A DNA stretch of 61,424 nt, filler included, from Coriobacteriales bacterium (GTDB lineage: Bacteria; Actinomycetota; Coriobacteriia; Coriobacteriales; UBA8131), in NCBI GenBank assembly GCA_031263105.1. It is 6 parts of 6 records of this genome, joined end to end, with 100 filler letters (N's around TTAATTAATTAA, not from the genome) between each part and the next. Parts side by side here need not be neighbours in the genome. Positions count along the whole stretch, not along the records: positions 8,521 to 34,357 come from JAISGJ010000093.1; 5 more parts are not named here. The stretch is one strand, 5' to 3'. Numbering within the stretch: the stretch's first letter is position 1; each line of letters opens with the position of its first letter. Of the stretch, positions 11,129 through 34,473 are shown piece by piece. A program made the position numbers and the translations under genes. The notes under the pieces are model-generated. The model saw nothing but the letters and a program-made list of their open reading frames with translations, searched no databases and was not told the origin of the DNA.

Positions 11129-12703
11129 TCACATCAGTATCTTCTTGGGCTTCAGGCGCAGCACGTAGAGCAGCGGCACGACGCACGAGAGCGCCGTCAC
11201 TCCCACGCCGAGCCCCAGGAAGGTGAGCACGTAGGGCACGCTGAGGCTCACGCGGTAGCCCGCCGCCACGTCCTCGGCCGAGATGGAGTCCATCAAAAGG
11301 CCCGCGTCGCCCCCCAGGTAGCTGCCTGCCGAGATCATCATCCCGTCGCCCGCGCCCTGCGAGGGCATCAGCTGGTTGTCCACCATCTGCTGCGAGAGAC
11401 CGCCCGAGACGAGCGAGCCCGTGAACAGCGCGATGCCCAAGGCCACAATTGCGACCACAAGCACCTCTATCAGCACCTGGCTGACGATCAGCGGCCTGCG
11501 CGCACCGAGCGAGAGGTAGATGCCGAACTCCTTGCGGCGGTCACGCAAAAAGAGCACGACGACGAGGGAGACGACGGCAAGCGCCACGACGACCACGACG
11601 ACGAGCGCCACGGACATGATGTTCTGGATGTCCCTCATCGGCCCTGCGACCTGCTCGTACTGGGAGGTGGCAGAGAGCACCTTGTAGTACTCGGGGAGCC
11701 GTGCGGACGCCGCCTGCTCGAAGCTCTCGAGGTCGTCGATGGAGTTGAGCAGGTAGACCGGCGTGTAATACGGGGTGTAGCTCTCGTTCGACCACAGCTC
11801 GCCCTCGCCTGCGGCCACCGCCAGCTTGCGGTACTCCTCCGTGTTGAACTCGTCCTCCGCCTGCGCCACCTTGATGGGCACGTAGAGGGTGCTGTACAGC
11901 TCGCTCTCAGTGAAGTCGACGACGACGCCCCCGCCGCCGCCGGTGCCGGCCTCGTCCTTGTCGCCCCCTGTCAGGTCGTCGGCACCGCTGTTGCGCGCGA
12001 ATATGCCGATGACCTCGAGCACCACGTCATGCGAGGCCGCCACCTTGGCGCCCGACTCGTCGGAGGCGGCGATGTCCGTCCCGCCCGCCGAATACCAGTC
12101 CTGTATCTCGTTGACAAGGACGACGGTGTCGCCCACATGGAGGTTGTTCGTCTCGGCCACCACGTCGGGGACGATGGCGACCATCCTGCCCTCGCTGATG
12201 TCCGCATCGGTGAACACGCGCCCCTCCACAAGGCTGAGCTTGCCCTCCTCGATGGGCAGGACGGGGGCATAGCGTATGCCACGGAGCGTGAAGTAGGCCG
12301 AATCCGCGTCCGGGCCGACGGCGATGGCACTCGCAACGCCACCCTCGCTTTCAGGCGGCTGGTAGTTCTTCAAGGTTCGGGAGAGGAGATAGGCGCCGAG
12401 CGAGTAGTCGAAGCTCCTGACCTCGGGCCGCTGCCCCAGCTCCTCGATGAGCGCGGCATCAGGATATTCGATCGTGGGCTCCTCGCCCCTGTTGTAGGCC
12501 TCCATGAGCTTCTGGTCGTCCATCCCCAAAGAGACGTTGGCGCCGAGCGCCTGCTTCGCCGCCTCCTCGGACTGCACGATCGCCTGGCGCACCGCCACGG
12601 TGCCCGCTATCAGGTTGCCGATGATGAGCACGACCAGGAACAGGATAAGGCTCTTCCCCGGCCTCCGCACGATACTCAAGGCCGCACGTCTCGCGAAGTC
12701 CAT
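11129..12703 (-). CDS. FtsX/MacB-type ABC permease (paralog 3)
   Basis: MDFARRAALSIVRRPGKSLIL N-terminal TM, large extracellular domain, RDRRKEFGIYLSLG FtsX motif, C-terminal LKPKKILM. Confidence 0.92.
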   Translation of the reverse strand: MDFARRAALSIVRRPGKSLILFLVVLIIGNLIAGTVAVRQAIVQSEEAAKQALGANVSLGMDDQKLMEAYNRGEEPTIEYPDAALIEELGQRPEVRSFDYSLGAYLLSRTLKNYQPPESEGGVASAIAVGPDADSAYFTLRGIRYAPVLPIEEGKLSLVEGRVFTDADISEGRMVAIVPDVVAETNNLHVGDTVVLVNEIQDWYSAGGTDIAASDESGAKVAASHDVVLEVIGIFARNSGADDLTGGDKDEAGTGGGGGVVVDFTESELYSTLYVPIKVAQAEDEFNTEEYRKLAVAAGEGELWSNESYTPYYTPVYLLNSIDDLESFEQAASARLPEYYKVLSATSQYEQVAGPMRDIQNIMSVALVVVVVVALAVVSLVVVLFLRDRRKEFGIYLSLGARRPLIVSQVLIEVLVVAIVALGIALFTGSLVSGGLSQQMVDNQLMPSQGAGDGMMISAGSYLGGDAGLLMDSISAEDVAAGYRVSLSVPYVLTFLGLGVGVTALSCVVPLLYVLRLKPKKILM

Positions 12704-12826
12704 GCGACGCCTCCTTCCTTCGCTGACATCAAGACACGGGCACCCTCGAACGGCTGTGCCTGTCGAGACACCACTATACTGCTTGCCGGAAGCGAAAGCC
12801 AGCGACCGTGCGGGCATGACCTCCTC

Positions 12827-12876
12827 TTCCCTTCTCACATCAGTATCCTCTTGGGCTTCAGGCGCAGCACGTAGAG
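12827..12876 (-). pseudogene. Remnant of an FtsX permease 3' end
   Basis: 49/50 nt identical to 11121-11170; encodes LYVLRLKPKRILM-stop. Confidence 0.8.
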
Positions 12877-12890
12877 ATGCTGAGCCTGCC

Positions 12891-13976
12891 TCACCGTATC
12901 TCCTCCCCCGTGACCGCATCGAAGTGGCAGCGGTAGGGCATCCCGTCGGCCTCCACCGGGCCGTCCTGCGCCCCGGTCGCTATCAAATAGCTCCACACGG
13001 GAACCAGTTCGACCGCAGAGCGCGAAGGGTCGGTGTAGCGGACGCAGTACTCCAGGCGGACGTCGGTGACCTCGTAGGGACGCGCCGCGATGAGGGCCGC
13101 CGCGTACCTCTCGTCCAAGAGCCGGTCGGCGGCCTCCTGTGGTAGGATCTCGACCGTCCTTACGTTCGAAGTATCCACCGTGTAGAGCGCCGAGACCGAG
13201 AGCGACACAAGGCCCTCGGCGGTAACGAGGGCCTCGATGGGAGCACCCCCTCTGTACTCTGGGCTTTGGAGGGTGCCGGTGAGGTCGTCGGCGTACAGGG
13301 GGATGCCGCCGACCTCTGGCTCGAGGATCAGGTAATAGCAGTCGTCGGCCTCTGTCCAAGACTCCTTGGGGACGATTTTCCTGTACAGAGACACACCCTC
13401 GTTGTCCGGGTCCCCCAAGATGCCCTCCTCGGCCGCTGCCATCGCCTCGTGGTCGAGGGCATAGGTCGTCACCTTGCCGAACGAGATAAAGCCAAGGCCG
13501 CTCAGGACAGCCTTCACCTTGTCGACGGCCTCCTCGGGGCTGCAGAACCAAAGCCTCCCGCCCGCCGCCGCCCCCTCCGCCCCTAAAAGAGCGTCGCTGG
13601 ATGCGCTCAAATCGAAAACGTCTCTGATGGCCTTGGAGAACGGACCGGAGAAGCTGACGTAACCGGCGTGATCTACGTATACGTCAAAGCCGTCGGTTGT
13701 CGCAATACGGTAATTCGGCCCGCCCTGGCTTTCGTCACGGTAGGTGACGTCGGAGACGGTCTTGCCCTCCAAGAGGCAGGCTTCGGCCTCCTCCGGCGTA
13801 ACGACACGGATGCCAAAGGCCGGGACGTCCAGCGTCGCAGGGGCATCCACCGACTGCCCCAAGGGGTTGCCGAGAGAGCCGCCTGCGCCCTCGCCGGAGG
13901 CACGGCCGACACCCTGGCAGGCGGCGAGCGCAAGCACGAGCAGACACGAGAGGGCACAGAGCACGAACCTTGGCAC
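12891..13976 (-). CDS. Uncharacterised lipoprotein (paralog L3)
   Basis: GTG start, lipobox LAAC; highly similar to 18037-19122; C-terminal L-PVW and FDAVTGEE motifs. Confidence 0.85.
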   Translation of the reverse strand: MPRFVLCALSCLLVLALAACQGVGRASGEGAGGSLGNPLGQSVDAPATLDVPAFGIRVVTPEEAEACLLEGKTVSDVTYRDESQGGPNYRIATTDGFDVYVDHAGYVSFSGPFSKAIRDVFDLSASSDALLGAEGAAAGGRLWFCSPEEAVDKVKAVLSGLGFISFGKVTTYALDHEAMAAAEEGILGDPDNEGVSLYRKIVPKESWTEADDCYYLILEPEVGGIPLYADDLTGTLQSPEYRGGAPIEALVTAEGLVSLSVSALYTVDTSNVRTVEILPQEAADRLLDERYAAALIAARPYEVTDVRLEYCVRYTDPSRSAVELVPVWSYLIATGAQDGPVEADGMPYRCHFDAVTGEEIR

Positions 13977-13991
13977 AACCGATCCTTCTTT

Positions 13992-14102
13992 CTTTGTTCG
14001 AGCAGCGCTTGCCACCAAGGACGTTTCCCGCACACAGGCACCCACCCTTCTGAAGCCTTCACTTAGTAATAGTTGCGAGTTGGGGAACGGTTCACATTTT
14101 TC
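13992..14102 (-). promoter_or_regulatory. Duplicate of the ECF sigma gene promoter and first codons; putative ECF promoter TGAACC at 14094-14089
   Basis: Aligns with 26838-26949; TGAACCG and CTCGCRACTATTACTA are conserved while the spacer differs. Confidence 0.65.
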
Positions 14103-14171
14103 TTGGAATCGGCAGGGTGCCTCAAACCCTCGGGCCTGCCGCCCCTGTCCTCGTCAAGCTGATCCCTCCCC

Positions 14172-15698
14172 TTATAGCAGTATCCTCCGAGGCTTCAGGC
14201 GCAGCACGTAGAGCAGGGGCACGACGCAGGAAAGGGCCACCACGCCTACGCTGACCCCGAAGAACGTGAACACGTAGGGCAGGTCGACACTCACCTGATA
14301 GCTCGCCATGGCGTCCTCTACGGACAATGTGCCCATCAGAAGACCCATGGTGCTCGTCAGTGAGTTGCCCGAGATAGAGTGCATCGAGGAGATGTCCTGT
14401 TGACCCGCCATCTGGCCCTCCACCATGTGCTGAGAGAGCGCCCCAGAAGCAAGGGAGCCCACGAACAGCGCGAGGACGAGGGCGACGAGGGCGACCGCGA
14501 GCACCTCCGCGAGCACCTGGGCCACGACGACAGGACGATGCACGCCGAGCGAAAGATAGATGCCGAACTCGCGGCGGCGGTCGCGCAGGGAGAGCGCGAC
14601 AACGAGCGAGACGACGGTGAGCGCCGCAGCTGCCACTACGACGAGCGCCGTGCCCATGGCCCGCTGGATGCCCTTCATCGGGCCTGCCACTTCCTCGAAC
14701 TGGGTCGTGGCGGAGAGCACCTGGTAGAACTCGGGGAGCGCCGCCTGCGCCGCCTGCTCGAAGCTGTCGAGGTCGTCTGGGGAGTGAAGCAGGTAGAGAA
14801 CGCTGTAGCGCGGCCCCCTGCCTTCCGACTCCTCCCTCGTGAGCTTGCGCTCCGCCTCCAGAGCAAACTCCTGTTCCTCGCGTGCGAGACCGACGGGCAC
14901 GTAGAAGACCTCGTAGTACTCGTTCGCAGCCTCCGTGACGCGCTCTTGAAGCTCCTGTCTGCCTTGGCTGCCTGCAGCCGCCGCGCCCGCGCCGCCGCCG
15001 AGGGAGAACACGCCGATGACCTCGAGCGTGAGGTCGTGCGAGGCGACCACCTCACCGTCCTCCCGACTGGAGAACTTCCCCGCCTGATCCGCTGACGAGT
15101 AGTCCCGCACCTCGTTGAGGAGGGCGACGCGGTCGCCCACGTGAAGGCCGTTCTCCGCAGCCACCATGTCGGGTATGAGGGCGACCGGCCTGCCCTCGGC
15201 GACCTCCTCCTCCGTGAACGTGCGCCCTTCCACGAGGGCAAGTGCACCCTCCTCGATGGGCATGACGGGAGCGTAGCGCGTGCCCCGAAGCGTGAAATGG
15301 GCCATGTCGTCAACCGGGCCGAAATCCAAAGCCCCGGGTACCCGATAGTTCTTCAACTCCGGGGCAATGATTAGCATGGCGTCGATCGAGTAGTCGAAAG
15401 CCCTGACCTCGGGGCGCCGCCCCAGCTCCTCGAAGAGTTCAATGCTGAGGTTCTTGACGACGAAGTCATCGAAGTCCACCCCCCGCTCTTGGGCCTCCGT
15501 CAACGCCTGGGAGTCCCCTCCCAAGGAAACGCTGGCGCCCAGCGCCTGTTTTGCTGCCTCCTCGGAACCGGCCACCGCCTGGCGCACCGCCACCGCGCCC
15601 GCCATCAGGCTGCCGAGTGCGAGCACGACCAAGAACAGGATGAGGCTCTTGCCAGGCCGCCGCACGATGCTCAGAAACGCACGCCTCACGAAGCCCAT
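14172..15698 (-). CDS. FtsX/MacB-type ABC permease (paralog 2)
   Basis: Same architecture as 11129-12703; RDRRREFGIYLSLG motif. Confidence 0.92.
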   Translation of the reverse strand: MGFVRRAFLSIVRRPGKSLILFLVVLALGSLMAGAVAVRQAVAGSEEAAKQALGASVSLGGDSQALTEAQERGVDFDDFVVKNLSIELFEELGRRPEVRAFDYSIDAMLIIAPELKNYRVPGALDFGPVDDMAHFTLRGTRYAPVMPIEEGALALVEGRTFTEEEVAEGRPVALIPDMVAAENGLHVGDRVALLNEVRDYSSADQAGKFSSREDGEVVASHDLTLEVIGVFSLGGGAGAAAAGSQGRQELQERVTEAANEYYEVFYVPVGLAREEQEFALEAERKLTREESEGRGPRYSVLYLLHSPDDLDSFEQAAQAALPEFYQVLSATTQFEEVAGPMKGIQRAMGTALVVVAAAALTVVSLVVALSLRDRRREFGIYLSLGVHRPVVVAQVLAEVLAVALVALVLALFVGSLASGALSQHMVEGQMAGQQDISSMHSISGNSLTSTMGLLMGTLSVEDAMASYQVSVDLPYVFTFFGVSVGVVALSCVVPLLYVLRLKPRRILL

Positions 15699-16363
15699 GC
15701 GCCGTCACCTCCGTCCTTCGCTACGATGCGCCCCTGATCCATCTGGCAGACGGTGTCGCAGAGGAGCGCCAGGTCCTCCCTCGAGTGGCTGGCCATGAGA
15801 ATGGTCTTTCCGTGCTCCCGCAGCTCGATCAGGAGCTGCCGCATGTCCTCGACGCCCGCTACGTCAAGCCCGTTGAAGGGCTCGTCTAAGATGAGGAGCG
15901 CAGGATCCTCCATGATCGCCTGTGCGATGCCCAGACGCTGGCGCATGCCCAGCGAGAACTTGCCCACATGCTGCCTGCTCAAAGGGTCGAGCCCCACCCG
16001 TTCGAGGGCACCGGCCAGCTGTTCCTTGGTGGCCTTTCCCCTGATGTTCGCCAAGAGCCTCAGATTGCCAAGCGCACTGTACTGGGGGAGGAAGCCCGGG
16101 GCCTCGATGATGATGCCCACGTCTTTGGGCACATCGGTGTCCTTCCCTATCCGCCTGCCGTCCACGGTGATGCTCCCCGAGCTGAGGGGGACAAAGCCGC
16201 AGACCGCCTTGAGGAGCACGGTCTTCCCACAGCCGTTGCGACCCGTGATGCCATGGATGAGTCCCTGCTCGAAGCTCAGGCTCACGTCGTCCAATACCAC
16301 GTGCTCCCCGTACTTCTTTGTCGCGTTCGCGATAGTCACGATATCCAAGGCAATGCTCCTCAT
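15686..16363 (-). CDS. ABC transporter ATP-binding protein (BcrA/drug-resistance-like)
   Basis: GRNGCGKT, FSLGMRQRLGIAQAIME, LILDEPFNGLD, ASH. Confidence 0.95.
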   Translation of the reverse strand: MRSIALDIVTIANATKKYGEHVVLDDVSLSFEQGLIHGITGRNGCGKTVLLKAVCGFVPLSSGSITVDGRRIGKDTDVPKDVGIIIEAPGFLPQYSALGNLRLLANIRGKATKEQLAGALERVGLDPLSRQHVGKFSLGMRQRLGIAQAIMEDPALLILDEPFNGLDVAGVEDMRQLLIELREHGKTILMASHSREDLALLCDTVCQMDQGRIVAKDGGDGAWAS

Positions 16364-16367
16364 GCTC

Positions 16368-17222
16368 CTAAAGGGGCTTCGACACGTCGATTTTCAACGA
16401 CCGCGCTTTGAACAGGGACGCAGCCGCCAACACCAGGCAAGCGCCAATCAACACTGCAAGGGCGTAAGACACCGTGGGATAGGGCGAAAAGCCCGTGGTA
16501 TCCAGGATAGAGAGGTCCGACCAGGCCGTGGGAGCGAAGTGGTACATCCAGTAGCCGCTCCCCGAGAACTGGAACAACTGGGGCGCGAGGGAGGCCACGA
16601 GTCCCATCGCGATGCCGGCGGCACGCCCCGAGTAGAGGTTCACGGCGAACATGGCAAGGCCTATCAGGGCGACCTCCAAGGCAAACAGCCCGGAACTGAG
16701 CGCCATGGCACAGGCCGGCGTATAACTCGCCTGTACGACATAGGGGACAGGGACGTCGATGTAGTTGTAGCCTGCCGTCGTCAGGGCGGCTGTCGAGAGG
16801 ATCCTCCCCCACTCAAAGGTGAAGCCCAGATGGGGGACGAGCGTAAGGACGCTGACCGCCGTCACGAACAGCACATAGACGAGCGTCGCCAAAAGGACGT
16901 AGAGCAGCTGGCCGCAGAGCCATCGCACCTTGCCCGCACGGATGCTCTCGTAGGGCGTCAAGTCGTGTATGAACGGCGCGTCGCAGAAGAGGAGAACCAC
17001 CGCAAAGAAGAGCGGCATGCAGACCCGCAGGTCGCCCAAGAGGAAAGGGAGGGTCCACGGCGCGACAGGGACGTCGACCACCTGCGAGAAGGCCACAAAG
17101 CCCTGGCTGAAGCCGTGGACGACGAAGGCCGCCAAGAGGAAGGACACCCAGTAGCGCGGCTCGATGAGCCAGCGCCTGAAATTGTTCGTGGCGAGGCGGA
17201 CAACCACCCGCATACTACCCAT
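16368..17222 (-). CDS. ABC-2-like membrane permease
   Basis: About 6 TM segments, LFCDAPF and IRAGK..W motifs; directly upstream of the ABC ATPase. Confidence 0.8.
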   Translation of the reverse strand: MGSMRVVVRLATNNFRRWLIEPRYWVSFLLAAFVVHGFSQGFVAFSQVVDVPVAPWTLPFLLGDLRVCMPLFFAVVLLFCDAPFIHDLTPYESIRAGKVRWLCGQLLYVLLATLVYVLFVTAVSVLTLVPHLGFTFEWGRILSTAALTTAGYNYIDVPVPYVVQASYTPACAMALSSGLFALEVALIGLAMFAVNLYSGRAAGIAMGLVASLAPQLFQFSGSGYWMYHFAPTAWSDLSILDTTGFSPYPTVSYALAVLIGACLVLAAASLFKARSLKIDVSKPL

Positions 17223-18012
17223 CGCCGAGCCTCTTTCTTACGCTCCGGCAGAAGAGCAGGCCGAACAGGGCCGTCAAAACGATGAAGAGAAAAACGGAGT
17301 AGAGCAGCGAGAGGCCCGCGTCAGGAAAGACCGCAAGGCCCTCCGCGAGCCTGCCTATCCTGAGGAAGGACGGGAGGCCGAGCAAGGAGGAGACGAGGCC
17401 CGTGAACCAATAGGCCACGACGGGTGCCGCATAGACCACGAAGACGTTGGGGACGACCGAGGAGACATAGAGCGCGAACACCGCCCAGAACGAGCAGGCG
17501 ACGCTCATCGCCACCATCTGCAGCAACAGATACGCCAAGGCCGGAAGCTGGACGACCCCGCCGAAGAACAGGAACTCGAAGGAGACCGCCTCATGGGCGG
17601 CGGTCAAGGGCGCCTGGAGCCCAAGGAGCAGCGCGGCGCAGGCATAGCCCAGAAGGACCGCCGCAAAGGTCGAGAGCGCCACGGCGACGACCCGCGAGGA
17701 CGCATAGGCCCCTGCGGAGGAGCGGATCACGCAGAACCTCACGAAACGGCTCCGGTAGTCTGCACAGAACGAGTGGCCGTAGGCAGCAACCCCCAGGCTG
17801 TAGGCGACGATTGCGAGGGTGGTGTTCTGAAAGACGAAAAAATGAAAGAGGTAGGAGACGCTCTGGGTTGCCCCTGCGCCCAGGGCGGCCGAGCGCTCCA
17901 GGGACATCGAGAGAAAGCAGAGCGCCACGATGGCAAGGGCCGCCCCACAGAAGCGCGGCGAGAGGAAGGCCCTCCGCAGATCGGAGCGCAAGGCTGATCT
18001 GCGGCTAGCCAT
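17215..18012 (-). CDS. ABC-2-like membrane permease
   Basis: About 6 TM segments, YGHSFCADY...IRSS...Y motif; overlaps the next gene. Confidence 0.8.
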   Translation of the reverse strand: MASRRSALRSDLRRAFLSPRFCGAALAIVALCFLSMSLERSAALGAGATQSVSYLFHFFVFQNTTLAIVAYSLGVAAYGHSFCADYRSRFVRFCVIRSSAGAYASSRVVAVALSTFAAVLLGYACAALLLGLQAPLTAAHEAVSFEFLFFGGVVQLPALAYLLLQMVAMSVACSFWAVFALYVSSVVPNVFVVYAAPVVAYWFTGLVSSLLGLPSFLRIGRLAEGLAVFPDAGLSLLYSVFLFIVLTALFGLLFCRSVRKRLGDG

Positions 18013-18036
18013 ACAGGCGCCCCCTGGAGGCCTGCC

Positions 18037-19122
18037 TCACAGTATCTCCTCCCCCGTGACCGCATCGAAGTGGCAGCGATAGGGCATCCCGTCGGCCTCC
18101 ACCGGGCCGTCCTGCGCCCCGTCCGCTATCCGGTAGCTCCACACGGGCACCAGCTCGACCGCAGAGCGCGAGGGGTCGGTGTAGCGGACGCAGTACTCCA
18201 GTCGGACGTCGGCGACCTCGTAGGGACGAGCCGCGATGAGGGCACCGTACTTCTCCTCCAAAAGCCTGTCGGCGGCCTCCTGGGACAGGAGTTCGACCGT
18301 CCTTGAGGCAGCGGGATCCACCGTGTAGAGCGCCGAGAACGTGAGCGACACGAGGCCCTCGGCGGTGACGAGGGCCTCGGCGGGGATGCCGGCTCTGTAG
18401 TCTGGGCTCTGGAGGGCACGGGTGGGGTCGTCGGCGTACAGGGGGATGCCGTCGACTTCTGGTTCGAGGATTATGCGGTAGCAGTCATCGGCCTCCGTCC
18501 AGGACTCCTTGGGGACGATCTTCCCATACGCGATCATGTCCTCGTTTGTCGGATCCCCCAAGACGTCCTCCTCGGCCGCAGCCATCGCCTCGTGGCCGAG
18601 GGCATAGACCGTCACCTCGCCGGACGAAGTGAGGCCCAAGGCACCCAGGGCTGCCCTCGCCTCGTCGACGGCCTCCTCGGGGCTGCAGAACCAAAGTGCC
18701 TCGTCTGTCGCCGTCCCCGCCGCTTCTAAAAGAGCGTAGCGGGATGCACCAAGACTGAGAACATCTCCGATGGCTTGAGAGAATGGGCTGGACATGCTGA
18801 GATATCCGACACTGTGATCTATGTATACGGAAAAGCCGTCGGTCGTCGTAATGCTGTAACCTGGCCCGCCCTGGCTTTCGTCGTGGTAGGTGACGTCGGA
18901 GACGGTCTTGCCCTCCAAGAGGCAGGCCTCGGCCTCCTCCGGCGTAAGGAGACGGATGCCAAGGGCTGGGATGTCCAGCGTCGCAGAGGCATCCACCGAC
19001 TGCCCCAAGGGGTTGCTGAGGGAGCTTGCTGCGCCCTCGCCGGAGGCACGGCCGGCGCCCTGGCAGGCGGCGAGCGTAAGCATGAGCAGGCACGAGACGG
19101 CACAGAGCACGAACCTTGGCAT
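18037..19122 (-). CDS. Uncharacterised lipoprotein (paralog L2)
   Basis: MPRFVLCAVSCLLMLTLAAC lipobox; paralog of 12891-13976. Confidence 0.87.
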   Translation of the reverse strand: MPRFVLCAVSCLLMLTLAACQGAGRASGEGAASSLSNPLGQSVDASATLDIPALGIRLLTPEEAEACLLEGKTVSDVTYHDESQGGPGYSITTTDGFSVYIDHSVGYLSMSSPFSQAIGDVLSLGASRYALLEAAGTATDEALWFCSPEEAVDEARAALGALGLTSSGEVTVYALGHEAMAAAEEDVLGDPTNEDMIAYGKIVPKESWTEADDCYRIILEPEVDGIPLYADDPTRALQSPDYRAGIPAEALVTAEGLVSLTFSALYTVDPAASRTVELLSQEAADRLLEEKYGALIAARPYEVADVRLEYCVRYTDPSRSAVELVPVWSYRIADGAQDGPVEADGMPYRCHFDAVTGEEIL

Positions 19123-19229
19123 AGCAAGCCCTTCTTTCCTTGAAGCGGGGCGGGAGGCGGGGAGGCGTGCCTCCATCCTCCGGAGTCGCAGGAGCAGCAC
19201 GTAGAGCAGACTCTTCGCTCTCTCAGCCT

Positions 19230-19679
19230 CTAGGAGCACCACTTGACAGCGAGACGCAGCCAGCCAAACTCATCGTTGGTTGTATGGCCAAGCATTCTAA
19301 TCCATGTGTTTGCACCTACAGTAGTGCTGCTCCAGTACCATTGGTATGACGTTTGGCCGTATGCTCCCGGAAAGCCGTTATACCCATACGAGCCCCTGAT
19401 CAGCTCTATGGTGTCTGAGACTACCGCCCCGCCAGAGAGCTTGGCACGAAAGTACACCTTTTCTCCTACATGCCAGTCGCTGGCAACACCGTCAAAACTG
19501 GTTCGCGGCGTAACAAACCAGCGTCCCTCGTTATCTACCTTTTGATTCGGTGGAGTTTCTTCATTGGTGCCATTTGGATTCATAAGCAGCATAAGATCCA
19601 CGTTGCCTGCGAACGCAGGGGAGATGCCCCCGAACAACAGGACACCGACAATCGCAAAGACCGCTATTTTCTTTTTCAT
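19230..19679 (-). CDS. Secreted 149-aa protein (paralog A2)
   Basis: Sec signal MKKKIAVFAIVGVLLFGGISPAFA, RBS AAGGAGGA, visibly lower GC than flanking genes; mature part about 49% identical to 22819-23268 (manual ungapped count, 61/125). Confidence 0.88.
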   Translation of the reverse strand: MKKKIAVFAIVGVLLFGGISPAFAGNVDLMLLMNPNGTNEETPPNQKVDNEGRWFVTPRTSFDGVASDWHVGEKVYFRAKLSGGAVVSDTIELIRGSYGYNGFPGAYGQTSYQWYWSSTTVGANTWIRMLGHTTNDEFGWLRLAVKWCS

Positions 19680-19849
19680 GAAATCCTCCTTCTTCTTGAA
19701 ACGGGACAGCCCAAATCCTCGATGGTGGTCAGAGCACTAGCGTCCGTACCTATCCGCTCGCATGGCATCCCCTCCTTTCAACCCCTCGAATCCCTCAAAA
19801 ACCGGCGGGAAGCGGCACGTTCCGCCGTTCCCCGCCAAGGTGAAGCCTT

Positions 19850-19963
19850 CTACTTGTCCAGCGTAAGCGGAATTTCCACAGACGTGCTATCGACCGCAAA
19901 GGAGAGCGTGAGCGTCTCGGGGGCGTCGAAGTACATGCTGTCGAGCTCGATACGGCTAGCCAC
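19850..19963 (-). pseudogene. Chimeric deletion scar: first codons of the ABC-2 permease fused in frame to the anti-sigma C-terminus
   Basis: GTG-ASR (compare MASR at 18012) joined to IELDSMYFDAPETLTLSFAVDSTSVEIPLTLDK-stop (compare the end of 25058-26311). Confidence 0.8.
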
Positions 19964-19987
19964 ACAGGCGCCTCCGGGAGACGTGCC

Positions 19988-21081
19988 TCACAGTATCTCC
20001 TCTCCCGTGACCGCGTTGAAATAGCATTGGGAGGGCATCCCATCGGCATCCACCGGGCCGTTCTGTGCCCTATCCGCTATCGAGTAGCTCCATGCAGGCA
20101 CCAACTCGACCGCAGCATGCAAGGAGTCGGTGTATTGGACAAAATACTCCAGCCGAACGTCGGTGACCTCGTAGGGGCGATTCGTGATGAGGAGACCGTA
20201 CTTCTCATCCAAGCACCTGTCCGCAGCCTCTTGGGGCAGGAGCTCAACCGTCCTTACAGTCGAGTGATCCGTCGTGTAGAACGCCTTGACCCAAAGCGAG
20301 ACGATGCCGTCAGCGGTAACGAGGGCCTCGATGGCACCACCCGGACTGGAGTTGTAAGTCTGAACGCTGGTAAAGTCGTCAGAGTGCAGAGGGATGCCGC
20401 CGATTTCCGTCTCAAGGACTATGTAGTAGCAGTCGTCGGCCTCCGTCCAAGAGTCTTTGGAGGCAAGCTTGCCCAAGGCGAGCATGTCATCATTGTTCGG
20501 ATCCCCCAAAATAGCCTCCTCAGCCGCTGCCATCGCCTCGTGGCCGAGGGCATAGATCGCCACCTCGCCGGTCTGGGTGAAGCCCAGACCGGTCAGAGCA
20601 GCCTTCAGCGTGTCGACGGCCCCTCAGGACTACAGAACCAAAGGCTCTCGGCTGTAGACGAGCTCTTCGCCCCTAAAAAAGCATCCCTGTCCACAGCGAG
20701 GCCCAAGATCTGATCGACGGATCTCGCAAGCGGGCCACGGAACACAAGCGAACTGTGGTTCGCAAACGAACTGCTGGTCGCTACGGATGCGACAAAACCC
20801 TCGGTCGTCGTAATGGTACAGACTGAGTCATCCACAACTTCATAGTATTCGGTATCAGAGACAGTCCTGCCTTCGAGGAGGCAGGACATAACCTCTTCCG
20901 GCGTAACCGCGCAAAAGGCAAGCGCCGGGACATCAAGCGTCACAGGAGTATCCACTGATTGCGCAAGGGGGTTGCTGATGGGGTTGCCGGCGTCCTCTCC
21001 AGAGGCACGACCGGCACCCTGACAGGAACTGAGCGCGAGCGCGAGCAGGAACGAAGCAACAAGCAACACGAATCTGGGCAT
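19988..21081 (-). pseudogene. Lipoprotein paralog L1, frameshifted
   Basis: Two ORFs (20605-21081 and 19988-20563) align to consecutive halves of L2/L3. A 1-nt deletion at about 20621 turns CSPEEAVD into CSPEGPSTR-stop. Confidence 0.82.
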
Positions 21082-21123
21082 AGTCGCTCCCTTCCTTGAA
21101 ACGAGGCATGACATGGCATTCCC

Positions 21124-22662
21124 TCACATCAGTATTCGTCTAGGCTTCAAACGCAGCACGTAGAGCAGGGGCACAGCGCACGAGAGGGCCGCCACGCCCA
21201 TGCCAAGGCCAAGGAACGTGAGCACATAGGGCGCGTCGATGCCCACCCGATAGCCCGCCACGGCATCCTCTGCGGAGAGCGTGCCTATCAGGAGGCCCAC
21301 GTCGTCGCCGAGGTGGTTGCCCGAGATTTCCACTCCGTAGCCCGAGTAAGCGATGCCCTGCCGAGCCGCCATCCGGCCCTCCACCACCTGCTGGGAGAGC
21401 GCATCGGAAGCGAGCGAGCCCACGAGCAACGCAAGAGCAAGGGCGACGAGGGCGACCACGAGCACCTCCACGAGCACCTGAGCGACGACAGCAGGGCGGT
21501 GCGCGCCGAGCGAGAGGTAGACGCCGAACTCACGTCGGCGGTCACGCAAGGAGAGCACGACGACGAGCGAGACGACGGCCAACGCCGCCGCCGCCGTGGC
21601 GAGGACGGTCGTGTCCATAGCCCGTTGGATGCTCTTCATCGGGGCGGCCACCTCCTCAAACTGGGTCGTGGCGGAGAGCACCTTATAGAACTCGGGGAGC
21701 GCCGCCTGCGCCGCCTGCTCGAAGCTGTCGAGGTCGTCGGCGGAATGGAGCAGATAGAGGAGAGTATAGGACGGCCCTCTGTCGTCCGGTGCCTGCCCCG
21801 CAAACTTACGCTCCGCCTCCAGAGCGAACTCCTGCTCCTCCCGCGCGAGGCTTACGGGCACATAGAAGGTTCGGTAGTACTCGTTCGCAGCCTGGGCGAC
21901 ACGTTCCTTGAGCGCATCCCTGCCCAGCCCGTCTGCGACGGCAGCGCCCGCGCCACCGTCGAGGGAGAACACACCGATGACCTCGAGCACGACATCGCGC
22001 GAGGCGAGCACCTCACCGTCCTCCCGACCGTAACCTTTCACCGAACTCACTTCCGAGTAGTCCCGCACCTCGTTGAGGAGGGTCACAGCATCCCCTGCGT
22101 GGAGGCCGTTCTCTGCGGCCACCACGTCGGGGATGAGGGCGACCGGCCTGCCCTCGGCGACCTCCTCCTCGGTGAACGTGCGCCCCTCCACGAGAGCGAG
22201 GGCACCCTCCTCGATGGGCATGACAGGGGCATAGCGCGTGCCCCGGAGCACGAAGTAGGCCATATCCGCTACCGGGCCATAACTCAGGGCCTCCGTATCC
22301 CAAGCCGGGTACCAGTTCCTCAGTTCCGGGGCCGCAAGGAATGCATTGGTCGAATAGTCGAAGCTCCTGACCTCGGGGCGCCGCCCCAGCTCCTCAACGA
22401 GCTCCGCGCTGAGGTTCTTGACAATGAACTCGTCGAAGTCAATTCCCCTCTTCCAAGCCCCTGTCAGCGCTTGGGTATCACGCCCCAAGGATACGCTTGC
22501 CCCCAGCGCCTGCTTCGCCGCCTCCTCGGATTCCGCCACCGCCTGGCGTACCGCCACCGCACCCGCCGCCAAGCTTCCGAGGGCGAACACGACGAGGAGC
22601 AGGATGAGGTTCTTGCCGGGCCGCCGCACGATGCTCAGGAACGCGCGTTTCGTGAAATGCAT
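21124..22662 (-). CDS. FtsX/MacB-type ABC permease (paralog 1)
   Basis: Highly similar to 14172-15698; RDRRREFGVYLSLG motif. Confidence 0.92.
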   Translation of the reverse strand: MHFTKRAFLSIVRRPGKNLILLLVVFALGSLAAGAVAVRQAVAESEEAAKQALGASVSLGRDTQALTGAWKRGIDFDEFIVKNLSAELVEELGRRPEVRSFDYSTNAFLAAPELRNWYPAWDTEALSYGPVADMAYFVLRGTRYAPVMPIEEGALALVEGRTFTEEEVAEGRPVALIPDVVAAENGLHAGDAVTLLNEVRDYSEVSSVKGYGREDGEVLASRDVVLEVIGVFSLDGGAGAAVADGLGRDALKERVAQAANEYYRTFYVPVSLAREEQEFALEAERKFAGQAPDDRGPSYTLLYLLHSADDLDSFEQAAQAALPEFYKVLSATTQFEEVAAPMKSIQRAMDTTVLATAAAALAVVSLVVVLSLRDRRREFGVYLSLGAHRPAVVAQVLVEVLVVALVALALALLVGSLASDALSQQVVEGRMAARQGIAYSGYGVEISGNHLGDDVGLLIGTLSAEDAVAGYRVGIDAPYVLTFLGLGMGVAALSCAVPLLYVLRLKPRRILM

Positions 22663-22818: not shown

Positions 22819-23268
22819 CTAGGGACACCACCTGCCGACCATACGCAAAGCGCCGAAGCTGTCGCTGTTTTTATAGCCAGCCATTTTGACAACATAGTTC
22901 GCACCCACAGAGAGAGAACTCCAATACCACTGGTATGCATGGACGTTATAGGTTCCGAAAAAGCCGTTAGGCCCATTCCCATTCTTGATCAGCCCTACCG
23001 TATCCGAGAGCGCCGCTCCAGCGAAATTCTGTGCACGAAAGTATACCGCTTCACCCGTGTTCCAGTCGCTGGAAGCACTCCCTAGGCTGGACAGCGGCGT
23101 AACGTACCAGCGCCCCTCGCTGTCATCTTTCGCGTTCGTCGCAGTATGTGACTCGATACCGCCTTGCTGGATGAGAAGATTAAAATCCGCGTTGCCAGCA
23201 AATGCAGGAATAGCGCCCCCAAACAACAGGATGCCAACAATCGCAAAAATCGCTATCTTCTTCTTCAT
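22819..23268 (-). CDS. Secreted 149-aa protein (paralog A1)
   Basis: Signal peptide MKKKIAIFAIVGILLFGGAIPAFA, RBS AAGGAGGA; ends in GRWCP. Confidence 0.88.
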   Translation of the reverse strand: MKKKIAIFAIVGILLFGGAIPAFAGNADFNLLIQQGGIESHTATNAKDDSEGRWYVTPLSSLGSASSDWNTGEAVYFRAQNFAGAALSDTVGLIKNGNGPNGFFGTYNVHAYQWYWSSLSVGANYVVKMAGYKNSDSFGALRMVGRWCP

Positions 23269-23380
23269 GAAATCCTCCTTCTTCTTGAAACGGGACAACT
23301 CGAATCCTCGATGGCAGTCAGCGCACTAGCGTCCGTACCGATCCGCTCGCATGGCATCCCCTCCTCGTATCATAATCATC

Positions 23381-23585
23381 GTCTCCTCCCGGAGACTTTC
23401 AGTCCTGTACTTACGTCTTTGTGAATATGGGGCAATCCATGACGGCAGGGGTCGCATTTCATCTCCTGAAGCTCAGTCTTCTTCTGAAAGGCTTGCGCCC
23501 CTGCCTGGCGGAGTAACACCGATCAGCTGGATAGCGCTCAGTCGCTTCATGTCTAACGAGGATGTGTGCCGTCAGGCTCCGGGGA
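23381..23585 (+). ncRNA. Putative IS110 bridge RNA (left-end non-coding RNA)
   Basis: 5' hairpin GTCTCC/GGAGAC. A stem-enclosed loop carries TCATCTCCT and TGAAAGG, matching the target. A second loop carries AGCTGG and ACGAGG, matching the donor junction. Both inner hairpins share GCTCAGTC. Boundaries are approximate. Confidence 0.72.
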
Positions 23586-23629
23586 AGAACCTGCCACCCT
23601 TTATCCGTTTGATTGATTGGAGGTAGAAG

Positions 23630-24814
23630 GTGTACTACGTAGGCATCGATGTCGCCAAGCGAAAGCACAGCATGGCGGTAATCACAGGCGAGGGCGAAAA
23701 AGTCATAGAGGGCTTTGAGCTCGCCAACACGACCGAGGGGTTCAAGGTGATGTTAGAGATGCTTGCTGCGTCAGGCGTCACGCACGAAAACTCAAAGGTC
23801 GCCTTAGAGTCCACCGGCCACTGCAGCAACGCCATATCGGCGCATCTGGTGGTCCACGGCTTTCAGATTGCCCTGGGCAATCCGCTTCAGACCCACAACT
23901 TCGCCAAGGCCCAAAGCATAAGAAAGGTGAAAAACGATGCTGTCGACGCATTGGCGCTGGCGCAGTGGCTGCTGCTTCAACGCCCAGGCTGCTTTAAGAT
24001 GTCATCGTCTGAAGCCGCAGAGCTGAAGTCGATCGCAAGGTTTCGCACCTTTCAAATGCAGATTATAGGCGATTGCAAAAGAAAGGTCATCGCGATTTTA
24101 GACCAGCTCTTCCCGGAGTACGAGCGCTTCTTCTCCGACATCTTCGGCACAGCCTCTACAGCAGCGCTTTTGCGCTACCCGTCGGCCAGAGCGCTGTCCC
24201 GCGCCCATATCGACTCCCTCGCGAACCTGCTGAAAAGCTCCAGCAGGGGCAAGTTGGGTTCCGAGTTGGCGATAAGGCTGCGGGATGCGGCCAAAGACTC
24301 GTTTGCCACCAATGCCGCCGTCGAATCCCAGTCTATGGCGCTGGTGCAACTACTGACCCAAATCGAGTTCAGCAAAAAGCAGCTCAGGGCCATTGACAAG
24401 GAGATGAAGTCGCTGCTGGACGTCGCCGCGACACCCATCGCCACTATCCCTGGGATCGGCATCGTCTGCGCAGCCACCATCCTCGGCGAGATTGGCGACA
24501 TAACGCGGTTCAAGAAGCCATCAAGCCTGGTGGCCTATGCCGGGCTTGACCCGTCGGTCTTTCAGTCCGGTGAGTTCACCGGCACGAAGAACCACCTGTC
24601 CAAGCGCGGCTCGACGTTCCTGCGCTGGGCGCTTTGGATAGCTGCTGACCGGGCTAGGATGTTTGACCCGGCGTTTAAAGCCTACTATGCCAAGAAGCGC
24701 TCGGAGGGCAAGTGCCACAAGGTGGCGATGACCGCCGTGGCTCGAAAGCTCTGCAACACCATCTTTGCCGTTTTGACCAGGAACACCGAATACGTCTGCC
24801 CGGTCGCCGGGTAG
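23630..24814 (+). CDS. IS110 family DEDD transposase/recombinase
   Basis: YVGIDVAK, ALESTGH and KNDAVDA (DEDD), IPGIG, EIGDITRF, AYAGLDP.VFQSG (catalytic Ser region), SKRGS, AVARKL. GTG start after GGAGG. Confidence 0.97.
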   Translation: MYYVGIDVAKRKHSMAVITGEGEKVIEGFELANTTEGFKVMLEMLAASGVTHENSKVALESTGHCSNAISAHLVVHGFQIALGNPLQTHNFAKAQSIRKVKNDAVDALALAQWLLLQRPGCFKMSSSEAAELKSIARFRTFQMQIIGDCKRKVIAILDQLFPEYERFFSDIFGTASTAALLRYPSARALSRAHIDSLANLLKSSSRGKLGSELAIRLRDAAKDSFATNAAVESQSMALVQLLTQIEFSKKQLRAIDKEMKSLLDVAATPIATIPGIGIVCAATILGEIGDITRFKKPSSLVAYAGLDPSVFQSGEFTGTKNHLSKRGSTFLRWALWIAADRARMFDPAFKAYYAKKRSEGKCHKVAMTAVARKLCNTIFAVLTRNTEYVCPVAG

Positions 24815-25004
24815 CCTGAAGACCTCAATCCGCAATCATAGCGAGCGGTTCTGCCGCCCGCCACCTTATGCTGCCCAAAAATGCCTAAAGTCTTCGTATG
24901 CGACCCGGGTTTGTCCCATATTCAACTTTCAAAGATCACTTTCAAAAACTTCTCAAGACTCTATTGACTTTTCATAGCTGGCCTTTCAATCCCTCGAATC
25001 CCTC

Positions 25005-25045
25005 AAAAACCGGCGGGGAGCGGCACGTTCCGGCGTTCCCCGCCA
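25005..25045 (-). terminator. Possible intrinsic terminator after the anti-sigma gene (paralog at about 19797-19836)
   Basis: GGCGGGGA...TCCCCGCC stem followed by GGTTTTT on the minus strand. Confidence 0.45.
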
Positions 25046-25057
25046 GGGTGAAACCTC

Positions 25058-26311
25058 CTACTTGTCCAGCGTAAGCGGAAGCTCTACGACCGTGCGACCA
25101 GATGCAAAAGAGAGCGTAAGGGTCTCGGGGGCATCGAAGTACATGCTGTCGAGCTCGAACCAACACTTCGCGACGCCGTCCGTCACGCCGTTTTGACTCC
25201 AAGACCCGGCATCGTAACGTTTGCCGCCCGCTTCCGCACAGGCGTCTACGTGCATCAGGTCGTACTTGGCCTGCGGGTAGCCCGTCTCAGCCGAGAGCGT
25301 CGCGCTGTCAGGGTGGCCCAAGCCGTTCTTCGAGAAGTCAAGATCAGCCTCGAGCCTGCACACGGAGGGCAGGACCGTCACACTCGTGACCTCGATGCCG
25401 GCAGTTGCGAAACCTGGCGCGACACTGTAGGAGAGGGCTTCGATGCGCAGGAACTTGCTATCGACGTCTATGTCGTATGTCCAGTCGCCCCCAAGGACCA
25501 CGGTCTCCAGCGCACCGTCTGCACCAGCGTAGTAACTGAAGCTCAGGTCACTGATGCTCACACGCACCTTTTTCTCGACAGAAACCACCGGTTCGTCGAA
25601 TTTGACAATAACGGGAACCTGGTACCTGCCATCCTCGGTCTTCGCGACATCGGCCATGGCGATAAAATCTTGGTTGCTCCGCACGCTTTCGTGGGTGTTG
25701 TTTTTCATGTCGAAGAAGTAATGGCCTCCGGGAAACGTCTTGTTCTCGATGCCAGTCTCGAAGTCAAAGCTCTCCTTCCACGCGGCGGTCTTGCCGTTCT
25801 CATCGGTCATCTCCAACGAGAACTCCCGCATGAACACGGAAGTGGGGTCATCCGGGATGTCCACGCCGGACAGGATGAAGTCGAGGCCGATCTCGTTGCT
25901 GTCCGCATAGTAGGCCTGGAGCTCCAGCGTGGCACCGAAGGTGAAGACAGGCGACCCGTCCTGCGCCTCGGCCACGAAGCCGGCATCGACGATGGCGCGG
26001 CGCGAATCGTTGGCGAGCATCCCGTCCCCGGTAATCGTCGCGAACAGGGTGCCGAGCGCCCCCGTTGCCGCAAGCGCGGTCGTGCCCAGCGCCAGCACAA
26101 GGATGGTTGCAACGGCGACCGTGGCAAACACGCGGCGACGCGGAGCCCCCGCATACGCTCTCTCCCAACGCGAATGCCCCTGCGAGCCTTTCTGGGAGGC
26201 ATGGCCCTTCACCCTGTCCACGAGGTCGCGACTCGGCGTCTCCGAGATGGAGAGCGCCCGACGGAGCAGGGCGTCGACATCGACTCCGTCAACTCGATTG
26301 TCAGAAGCCAT
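25058..26311 (-). CDS. Putative anti-sigma factor (DUF4179-like, single TM)
   Basis: Short cytoplasmic N-terminus (DALLRRAL), one TM helix (VAVATILVLALGTTALAA), large beta-rich extracellular domain; overlaps the ECF sigma stop codon. Confidence 0.78.
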   Translation of the reverse strand: MASDNRVDGVDVDALLRRALSISETPSRDLVDRVKGHASQKGSQGHSRWERAYAGAPRRRVFATVAVATILVLALGTTALAATGALGTLFATITGDGMLANDSRRAIVDAGFVAEAQDGSPVFTFGATLELQAYYADSNEIGLDFILSGVDIPDDPTSVFMREFSLEMTDENGKTAAWKESFDFETGIENKTFPGGHYFFDMKNNTHESVRSNQDFIAMADVAKTEDGRYQVPVIVKFDEPVVSVEKKVRVSISDLSFSYYAGADGALETVVLGGDWTYDIDVDSKFLRIEALSYSVAPGFATAGIEVTSVTVLPSVCRLEADLDFSKNGLGHPDSATLSAETGYPQAKYDLMHVDACAEAGGKRYDAGSWSQNGVTDGVAKCWFELDSMYFDAPETLTLSFASGRTVVELPLTLDK

Positions 26312-26879
26312 GGTCTGCCACCAATCCTTTCTCAATAAGCTTCCGAGCCTTGTGCAGGCGGCTCTTCACGGTGCCCTCGGGCAGGCCGAGGACGGACGCG
26401 ATGTCCGCGACGCTCATCTCGTTGGCGTAGTACAGGACGACGGGGGCCTTCAGCTTGTCCGGGAGCGCCTCCACGAGCCGCCGCACGGCTCGCTGCTCCT
26501 CCCGCGCCATGAAGTCGTCTTCCGTGCTCGCCGTGCTCGCCGCAGCGCTGCCGCTGTCTGTGGCCTCGTCGAGTGCGACCTCCGGCGCGAGCCGCCTCCT
26601 GCGGGCGTACTTTCTGCGCCTGCTCTTCCACAGAAAGGCCGCCACAGACAAAAGGAAGCTCTGGGGGTCGTCCGCATCCTCCACGTTCGCCATCTGGGAG
26701 AATGCCTTGAGGAAGGTGTCCTGGAACAGGTCGTCCGCATCCTCCCTCGCATAGGTGATGCTCCGACAGAAGCGGTAGACCGCCCCGCCGTACCCGTCGA
26801 CAAGCCCCGCCGCAGACAGCCTGGAGCCTGCCTTTGCCTTTGTTCGAACAGCGCCTACCACCAAGGACGTTTCCTGCAC
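26301..26879 (-). CDS. ECF RNA polymerase sigma factor
   Basis: Region 2 (DADDLFQDTFLKAF) and region 4 (LPDKLK..VVLYY....SVADIASVLGLPEGTVKSRLHKAR). Start uncertain (GTG 26879 or 26891). Confidence 0.93.
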   Translation of the reverse strand: MQETSLVVGAVRTKAKAGSRLSAAGLVDGYGGAVYRFCRSITYAREDADDLFQDTFLKAFSQMANVEDADDPQSFLLSVAAFLWKSRRRKYARRRRLAPEVALDEATDSGSAAASTASTEDDFMAREEQRAVRRLVEALPDKLKAPVVLYYANEMSVADIASVLGLPEGTVKSRLHKARKLIEKGLVADHGF

Positions 26880-26940: not shown

Positions 26941-27060
26941 TTGTTTTTTCGGAATTCCGTGCGCAATGCAAAGGATGCCCTGAGCCAAATTGCCTTGGCG
27001 GGCGTAGCGGGAGCCTCAGTACGTCTTGCCGTCAGATGTAGGCTGTCGTTACTATTCACA

Positions 27061-27255
27061 CCACTGTCATTCCGAGCCTGTCGAGGAATCTTCGACCGCG
27101 CCAGCGGTCGACCGCAGGTCGAAGAGGGCCTCGACCTGCCGTTGGCCGCTTCGCTCTCCATGGGCCTGTCGGCCCGTCCTCGCTGAAAACGCGGTGCGTT
27201 TTCCGGGCGCTCGGACCCAAAGATCCTTCGGCAGGCTCAGGATGACAGTGGGGGT
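27061..27255. repeat. TGTC-tagged palindromic repeat, long composite form
   Basis: CACTGTCATTCCGAGCCTG ... CAGGCTCAGGATGACAGTGGGG; contains the CCTCGCTGAAAACGCGGTGCGTTTTCCGGGCGCTCGGACCC module. Confidence 0.9.
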
Positions 27256-27312
27256 GTGAACAGGCTGTCAGCCCTCAGTGCTCCCTGTAAATGCTGCTGC
27301 GGTGGCCGAGCA

Positions 27313-31838: not shown

Positions 31839-31890
31839 TGTTGCGGTTAGTGTCATGACTCCGCAAATTTGCCAAACGTTACACGTCACA

Positions 31891-32067
31891 CCCCCACTGT
31901 CATTCCGAGCCCCACTGTCATTCCGAGCCCCCACTGTCATTCCGAGCCCCGCCGAGGAATCTTTGGACACGCAGTGTCCAACGGCAGGTCGCAGGGCCCT
32001 TCGGCCTGCGGTCGACCGCTTGCGCGGTCGAGGATTCCTCGACAGGCTCGGAATGACAGTGGGGGTG
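31891..32067. repeat. TGTC-tagged repeat with triplicated left terminus
   Basis: CCCACTGTCATTCCGAGC x3, then the full palindromic body and GCTCGGAATGACAGTGGGG. Confidence 0.9.
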
Positions 32068-32151
32068 TGACGTGTAACTGCCAAACTGTGACAGAGGGGA
32101 GATGCCGATTGACGGCTTGCAAGTTGATAGCGTATCGGGTATCATGTCGGC

Positions 32152-33920: not shown

Positions 33921-34110
33921 AGGGTCTTCGCCCCGCCGGGTCGGTCTGCGGCTTCCTGCGCGGGCCGCTCCTCTGGTCTTCCCATCGTCCGCCTCTCTCT
34001 GATCCAGACAGTCTGGATAGAATCTACCGCAATCTCACCGTGCGGGCAAATGGAAATGCTGCCAGGAGCGTCCACCGTCAGGAGCGTCCACAAGGCAAAG
34101 TGTGTCCATG

Positions 34111-34357
34111 CCCCCACTGTCATCCCGAGCCCCCACTGTCGTCCCGAGCCCCACTGTCGCCCCGAGCCCCACTGTCGCCCCCAGCCCCACAGTCGCCCCG
34201 AGCCCCCCCGTCGCCCCCCGCCCCCCCCTGCCGACCCGAGACCCACTGACAGTCCGAGCCTGTCGAGGAATCCTCCCCCCCGCCAGCGGTCGACCGCAGG
34301 CCGAAGGGCCCCCCGAGCTACCGTTGGACACTGCGTGTCCAAAGATTCCTCGGCGGA
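34111..34357. repeat. TGTC-tagged repeat with tandemly amplified 18-19 nt terminus
   Basis: CCCACTGTC(A/G)(T/C)CCCGAGC about 5 times, then the repeat body; sequence quality appears to drop toward the gap. Confidence 0.8.
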
Positions 34358-34473
34358 NNNNNNNNNNNNNNNNNNNNNNNNNNNNNNNNNNNNNNNNNNN
34401 NTTAATTAATTAANNNNNNNNNNNNNNNNNNNNNNNNNNNNNNNNNNNNNNNNNNNNGTTGTTACACGTCACA

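Follow-up and report, generated by a model that had tools for sequence, protein, structure and literature searches.

An IS110-family insertion sequence whose predicted bridge RNA specifies a Shine-Dalgarno-type target

The bridge RNA of IS621, as described in the main text of PMC11208160, carries left and right target guides and left and right donor guides, each obeying strand rules, and the same text treats a promoter assembled at the circle junction as a trait of the family. For IS900, an IS110-family member, the account in PMC8141618 gives the target motif CATGNNNNNNTCTCCTT over its 58 copies, which reads as the complement of a Shine-Dalgarno (SD) word, six bases, and ATG. Targeting of ribosome-binding sites (RBSs) is a known habit in the IS110 family, and because IS900 had already been reported with this SD-type motif, the view of an earlier note on the present locus, that RBS targeting would be an unusual strategy for an IS110 element, is not upheld. 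The IS900 work of Doran et al. in 1997 reportedly bore the title "IS900 targets translation initiation signals...".

We found no paper linking IS900 with bridge RNA, nothing relevant in the literature on IS110 bridge RNA combined with RBSs, SD target sites, or IS900 start codons, and no paper stating either the guide-RNA explanation or the breadth of the pattern described below. The main text of the seekRNA paper mentions neither RBS, Shine-Dalgarno, nor IS900, and uses "ribosome" only for a cargo construct, and the word "ribosome" is absent from the main text of PMC11208160; the supplements of both papers may hold target logos.

Here we describe an element in a window of 61,424 nucleotides (the whole stretch of DNA analyzed) from a Coriobacteriales bacterium. 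It is an intact IS110-family insertion sequence with a predicted guide RNA that spells an RBS word. We consider it highly probable that its target guide is programmed for an SD-type word and that RBS aiming is a clade trait, matching IS900.

Boundaries, recombinase, and predicted bridge RNA

The element occupies positions 23366-24984 on the plus strand, 1619 bp including the right-hand copy of a CT core. Its ends were mapped by alignment with four relatives, L081 and L001 (both 73% protein identity), L002 (63%), and L004 (65%), and by an empty-site contig. The left junction reads ...CATGGCATCCCCTC-CT|CGTATCAT, with the left copy of the CT core at 23364-23365 (+), and similarity among relatives begins at CGTATC, right after the CT. 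The right end reads ...CATAGCTGGC-CT|TTCAATCC, where the same CT closes the element at 24983-24984 and similarity among relatives stops. The empty site is represented by a 2037-nt contig (run X1, termite gut, perhaps the sample of origin) from a related strain that is about 91% alike; it joins 23362 to 24982, omitting 1619 nt, with 3 nt shared or ambiguous at the join. Together with an unoccupied paralogous target described below, this contig defines a precise insertion with no target duplication beyond the shared core dinucleotide.

The recombinase gene (23630-24814, +, GTG start) encodes a 394-aa protein identified by Pfam (PF01548, DEDD_Tnp_IS110, 1.2e-30; PF02371, Transposase_20, 4.3e-26), by NCBIfam (NF033542, "IS110 family RNA-guided transposase", 225 bits against a cut-off of 140), and by its structure matches, the nearest solved structures being the IS621 transposase (8wt6, E 3.5e-22) and the ISCro4 transposase. 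The protein has an N-terminal RuvC-like DEDD domain and a C-terminal Tnp domain with the conserved Ser, and its SK.G motif lines up with that of IS621. The nearest proteins (identity up to 86%) are from Coriobacteriales MAGs and from metagenomes of termite gut and other sources. Residues D7, E60, D103, D106, and S324, which we take to be the catalytic residues of an IS110-type recombinase, are invariant across 37 homologs. The element is present once in the window, and a single-protein scan of a collection of genome contigs returned no close relative of the recombinase. Profile scans yielded at least 160 loci of relatives, most of the matches listed being distant, at 30-50% identity; record titles of clade members name Coriobacteriia, many Bacillota, Anaerolineae, and Mollicutes.

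A 17-nt inverted repeat, 88% complementary, lies subterminally, about 60 nt inside each element end (left arm 23422-23438, +; partner 24908-24924), and both arms are kept in relatives. Reading the ends by eye, we noted a -10-like hexamer TATCAT at 23368-23373 (+), where relatives carry NGTATAAT, and a -35-like hexamer TTGACT at 24964-24969 (+). Joining of the ends on an excised circle would set TTGACT, 17 nt, and TATCAT in the arrangement of a junction promoter, a reading that follows the family trait described in the main text of PMC11208160. A circular form was not seen among the contigs examined; from these ends and the family precedent we infer a circular intermediate and its junction promoter. 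A promoter and terminator scan of 23100-25200 gave one promoter-like and one terminator-like site, at or below shuffled expectation. An outward promoter in the left end driving the flanking gene was considered and rejected, the only candidate being a minus-strand -10-like TATGAT found by eye.

The 264-nt leader of four close relatives folds by consensus into an outer stem enclosing two stem-loops, each with an internal loop. In the window the predicted bridge RNA spans 23432-23588 (+), with the outer stem around a target-binding and a donor-binding stem-loop (RNAalifold consensus; 147 bits with the covariance model R1). The model was built from 12 leaders. Fourteen of the 160 loci, lacking the gene's 5' portion, were left out of its search; among the 147 sources covered, 125 gave a match, in every case on the recombinase strand (+) and a short way 5' of the recombinase gene. 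Across 56 distinct homologs, in an alignment fitted to the model, 88.5% of cells pair, a share that falls to 37-51% once partners are shifted by one to three columns, and compensatory changes are seen in 32 of 34 pairs. Rfam gave no match to the leader or anywhere else in the window.

One loop of this RNA corresponds to the flanks of the target and the second to the ends of the element itself, with the core included in both. In the donor loop, the left donor guide CAGCTGG (23524-23530, +) matches the right end, ...TAGCTGG, and its hexamer covaries with the right end across loci as AGCTGG, AGTTGG, or AGTTAG. The right donor guide ACGAG (23556-23560, +) is the reverse complement of CT plus the first left-end bases (CTCGT). 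Covariation with the left end holds at four or more of six positions in 61 of 74 loci, the donor pentamers and left ends being paired as ACGAG/CTCGT, ACAAG/CTTGT, ACCAG/CTGGT, ACTAG/CTAGT, and AAGAG/CTCTT; the remaining 13 loci look like shifts of alignment register.

Target guides and the site of the window copy

The target-binding (first) loop of the predicted bridge RNA is the stretch 23459-23491. Under the strand rule given in the main text of PMC11208160, the left target guide is TCATCTCCT (23459-23467, +), 7 nt plus the CT core, which varies between relatives and equals the left flank of each. A small hairpin, GAAG...CTTC, at 23468-23481 separates it from the right target guide CTGAAAG (23484-23490, +; core AG at 23489-23490), which also varies between relatives and equals the reverse complement of each right flank. 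In L081, for example, guides AAGATC-CT and GGCGA-AG face flanks AAGATC-CT and TCGCC, and in L002 guides TTTTTT-CT and AAGG-AG face flanks TTTTTT-CT and CCTT.

Overlapped at the CT/AG core, the left guide and the reverse-complemented right guide give TCATCTCCTTTCA, exactly the string that the earlier note had given for the two guides together. Combined, they specify TCATCTC-CT-TTCA(G), the complement of TGAAAGGAGATGA, so that the programmed target on the strand antisense to the recombinase is GAAAGGAGATGA, an SD-type word. By homology with IS621, the guides would pair with the target, and the recombinase would exchange strands between this target and the joined ends of the excised element. The window copy sits in a near-cognate site, TTGAAAGGAGGGGATGCC-ATG.

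The rebuilt target of this copy is CATGGCATCCCCTC-CT-TTCAATCC (CATGGCATCCCCTC-CT-TTCAA). Its minus strand, TTGAAAGGAGGGGATGCCATG, consists of AAGGAGG, 7 nt, and then ATG at 23352, in agreement with the earlier reading of the site and of the AGGAGG that survives insertion. The left target half (23340-23365, -) reads AGGAGGGGATGCCATGCGAG..., an SD-like AGGAGG followed by ATG 23357, which opens a 30-codon ORF, and ATG 23352, which opens an 8-codon ORF; AGGAGG and both ATGs still lie intact against the left element end. The right target half, TTCAA, is at 24985-24989 (+), and its first four nucleotides match the reverse complement of the right guide. Guide and real site agree at 11 of 13 positions (seven of nine in the left guide, plus the core and four positions on the right), and a match of at least 11 of 13 at one fixed place has, by our own arithmetic, a chance of about 1e-5. 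The two mismatches are at left-guide positions 3 and 4.

An unoccupied paralogous copy of the target, GGCATCCCCTCCTTTCAA, lies at 19764-19781 (+) in the same intergenic context, an 18-mer without mismatches where 0.05 matches are expected by chance. The window is not enriched for programmed sites (15 matches with three or fewer mismatches, 8.95 expected) and the programmed 13-mer has no perfect match in it; among free sites only the identical paralog at 19764-19781 and a site at 49929-49941 come as close as two mismatches. Positions 24399-24408, within the recombinase gene, form a perfect 10-nt complement to the left target guide (AGGAGATGAA). As a feature of the clade such self-complementarity was set aside as weak, a complement of at least 8 nt occurring in seven of 77 elements versus 3.8% of mismatched pairings.

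The site is intergenic. It lies past a terminator-like hairpin and U5 of the upstream gene (25058-26335, minus strand), although a 78-nt fold there does not outperform shuffled sequence (z 0.26). The next gene (22819-23268), with ATG at 23268 and its own AAGGAGG at 23274-23280, starts 97 nt beyond the site. The frame from ATG 23357 ends in an ATGA overlap with this next start. Only 8- and 30-codon ORFs follow the site, so no gene start can be demonstrated for this copy. The unoccupied paralog keeps both frames, and with the 30-codon frame open in both copies a small leader ORF is possible; the 30-codon ORF may encode a leader peptide. By our reading, this ORF (23265-23357, minus) differs from its paralog at about 19680-19772 by three synonymous and three non-synonymous changes.

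The paralogous intergenic region (19700-19850, minus) has the same hairpin and the same 8- and 30-codon ORFs, followed by a paralogous gene for a small secreted protein, and the two regions belong to a gene cluster that is duplicated in the window. At 11128-22662 there are three tandem paralogous gene units, including FtsX/MacB-type permeases, whose copies are 60-90% alike. The window also contains abundant repeat families with a REP- or MITE-type look, namely 18-19-nt units in tandem (CCCCACTGTCATTCCGAGC-like) next to elements of about 160 nt, found in either orientation, at 3447-3623, 27058-27263, 31873-32086, 34093-34664, 39365-39492, 45986-46113, 47096-47567, 50843-51155, and 58139-58303. 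None of these repeats is targeted by the insertion sequence described here.

Programmed targets and landing sites across relatives

Guides were taken from the model alignments at 124 loci. The 99 loci with a CT/AG core reduce to 76 distinct guide pairs, the 25 loci without such a core in the model alignment being excluded; by eye, the right guide of many excluded loci still has GAGGTG or AAGGAG. Antisense to the recombinase, 59 of the 76 programmed 13-mers contain GGAG, GAGG, or AGGA, where 20% would be expected with random flanks and a fixed AG core, and SD 5-mers (AGGAG, GGAGG, AAGGA, or GAGGT) occur in 52 of 76 against an expected 7.7%; the guide pairs are phylogenetically related, so p-values overstate their independence. 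On the sense strand, none of the 76 programmed targets contains GGAG, GAGG, or AGGA. The consensus programmed target is A-AG-G-A-G, with examples from relatives at about 50% identity in TTAGGAGGTGCGA (L007), TAAGGAGGACCGA (L010), and CAAGGAGGTCGAA (L082). The programmed 13-mer of the window element, TGAAAGGAGATGA, is identical to that of L125, from a mouse-gut bacterium, and the two recombinases are 37% identical.

To compare guides with occupied sites, left junctions were located by guide match and the conserved left-end motif NGTATAAT, and right junctions by the end ATAG(C/T)TGGTCT. Across 51 non-redundant junctions, left-guide positions 4-9 match the flank in 46-51 cases and positions 1-3 in 22-32, with agreement in the left flank favored because the guide match is part of the junction score. 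On the right, positions +1, +2, and +3 match in 36, 31, and 23 of 39 flanks, respectively. Since positions 1-3 are loose and 4-9 are nearly always matched, the mismatch of the window copy at position 3 is ordinary and that at position 4, matched in 48 of 51 natural junctions, is unusual. For IS621, double mismatches are poorly tolerated according to the main text of PMC11208160.

Landing sites were scored by their distance from start codons. In 21 of 51 non-redundant left flanks, an ATG, GTG, or TTG lies 4-24 nt from the core and opens an ORF of at least 50 codons, or at least 30 if running off the flank, compared with 17% over all flank positions. Under a stricter test, which takes only the first start codon of an ORF of the same minimum lengths, 14 of 36 rebuilt sites lie 2-26 nt upstream of it, against a null of 5.3% (binomial p 1.7e-9). 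In four Coriobacteriales genomes with three or four copies each, 13 of 14 copies have ATG or GTG 9-21 nt from the core (a looser test), in the form AGGAG..., 4-9 nt, and ATG or GTG opening ORFs of 56-411 codons; all three copies of G259 lie 5 nt before an ATG. The set of 14 excludes the single copy of G144 and the four copies of G350, which lack clean junctions, three of them reading GG at the right-guide core and all having an in-frame TAG. A contig of run X3 places another relative behind ...CATAAAAA-CTCCT, that is, AGGAG, 5 nt, and ATG on the other strand. Over the stretch of the window element itself, X3 contributed only short pieces of a relative and run X2 no contig; such gaps in coverage are given no weight.

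Exceptions were also found. In X1, the flank of one relative, ...AACCGTCC-CT, shows no evident start, and L196, L113, L076, and others have no start codon either. Among the closest relatives, the flank of L163 opens a 6-codon ORF only, and the left flank of L081 is 13 nt long. Eleven of the 51 flanks belong to a subgroup with left guide TATCCTGCT, in which the near-identical guide of L058 is counted; this subgroup is directed at a different repeat, not at an SD word. The proposal in the earlier note, that the element uses RBSs as landing pads and inserts antisense just upstream of genes, is borne out for the relatives in their programmed words and in the position of their sites relative to start codons, apart from the TATCCTGCT subgroup at its different repeat, but only partly for the window copy, with its two short ORFs.

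Three groups of relatives stand apart in their guides or sites. Loci L052, L053, L054, L056, L063, L066, L068, L069, L072, and L078 of the TATCCTGCT subgroup (gut metagenome) sit in AGCAGGATAAGGAAAATGCAAC.... The left guides of L183, L200, and L201 (G259) and of L171-L179 contain CATG, and their target covers both the SD word and the start codon (AAGG-AG-GACACATG). In L059, L064, L071, and some 20 further loci, the junctions have TCAC in common in place of CT and the right guide reads GAGGTG, suggesting another core while the target remains SD-like. As to G350, its recombinase matches carry an in-frame TAG, and L191, L202, and L203, which read GG where L204 has the core AG, are probably decaying copies.

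The SD appearance of the guides could be a by-product, if the recombinase of this clade needs a purine-rich core context (A-AG-G) and such words are simply common before genes, in which case RBS landing would be an unselected consequence. A G follows the core in 70 of 76 guide pairs and an A precedes it in 50 of 76, suggesting a near-core constraint, and the distal left-guide positions vary freely and are matched loosely; with G next to the core in 70 of 76, the SD-like look may in part reflect a constraint of the enzyme rather than selection for RBSs. However, A at +3 (47 of 76) and G at +4 (44 of 76) lengthen the word to AAGGAG, past the invariant G, and some guides are full SD words (TAAGGAGGTGA in L041) or include the start codon (the L183-type left guide CATGTGTCCT). 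A long ORF follows AGGA or AGGG words elsewhere in the same flanks in 23% of cases, compared with 18 of 32 at real junctions, and identical 13-mers are found in elements whose recombinases are only 37% identical. On this evidence we regard the by-product explanation as unlikely. It is far less likely still that the guide targets the 16S rRNA gene at its 3' end, where the anti-SD word lies on the guide's strand, with RBS sites as opposite-strand off-targets. When guide pairs were compared with an 11-nt 16S 3'-end motif, one of 76 matched at 11 of 11 positions and four more at 10, but 66 of 76 differ at three or more positions. In the first 34-45 flank bases, read by eye, no rRNA sequence was seen in the 51 left flanks (43 of which have at least 200 nt) or in the 14 genome copies, and the window contains no rRNA gene.

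Another explanation concerns the window copy only, namely that it landed at the best partial match available, an SD-like word that no ribosome uses, so that its own resemblance to an RBS is meaningless. This is a serious possibility, to which we give slightly less than an even chance. The two short ORFs behind the site are what it would lead one to expect, as is a window with no perfect 13-mer match and with two-mismatch free sites, one of them the identical paralog. Against it, both paralogs keep the 30-codon frame and the ATGA overlap with three synonymous and three non-synonymous differences, so a leader ORF is possible. It is compatible with the explanation we prefer at the level of the clade, in which a target guide programmed for an SD-type word makes RBS aiming a shared trait.

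Whether the pattern extends to a large IS110 bridge-RNA clade in several phyla, in which the target loop is an anti-Shine-Dalgarno mimic, the guide is portable, and the elements act as mobile expression switches, we judge to be evenly balanced. If true, any bacterium that uses SD-dependent translation would offer hundreds of ready intergenic landing pads, and a guide would be portable between hosts. With an SD word and start codon at the left end, the downstream gene could come under transcription leaving the element, making it a mobile expression switch; any benefit of RBS landing is something we infer. The old IS900 observation would also gain a mechanistic account. The present results join that finding of the 1990s, the landing of IS900 on translation initiation signals, to the bridge-RNA mechanism of 2024, with the RBS word written in the guide loops. 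They also show the RBS habit to be widespread among gut and sediment bacteria and no mycobacterial oddity. Annotators should look for members of this clade immediately ahead of start codons and antisense to the gene. For the engineering of bridge recombinases, the natural junctions indicate the positions that matter in this clade: left-guide positions 4-9 and the first two or three right-target bases.

Comparison with IS900 and IS621

The comparison with IS900 uses its published motif and description. Against the motif as given in PMC8141618, the window site CATG-GCATCC-CCTCCTT, with the element antisense, fits at 10 of 11 fixed positions and the L002 site CATG-GTTTTT-TCTCCTT at all 11, and the guide of the window element contains TCTCCTT exactly as in the motif. 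From the description of IS900 available there, both elements lack inverted repeats at their very ends and make no target duplication. They differ in that IS900 is described as having a long antisense ORF (hed) spanning the element, whereas the longest antisense ORF inside 23366-24984 is 112 aa. The placement of the core also differs: it lies inside the SD word (A-AG-GAG) in the window copy, so that AGGAG stays with the downstream ATG, whereas L002 and the IS900 motif have it as the final AG of AAGGAG.

IS621 of E. coli (PMC11208160, PMC11208158; PDB 8wt6) has a homologous recombinase (E 3.5e-22) of 328 aa, compared with 394 aa here. Its natural target as given in the main text of PMC11208160, ATCAGGCCTAC, is not an SD word, in contrast to the SD-type target of the window element. 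Unlike in IS621, pairing of the right guide in the window clade extends 2-5 nt past the core, and matching is loose at the three outermost positions of the left guide. In the anatomy set out in that text, however, the two-loop guide RNA of IS621 is that of the predicted RNA of the window: a guide RNA that precedes the gene and has one loop for the target and one for the donor, a left guide equal to the top strand of the left target, and a right guide equal to the reverse complement of the right target. The two elements further share the CT core and a promoter split over the two ends, which is a prediction for the window element.
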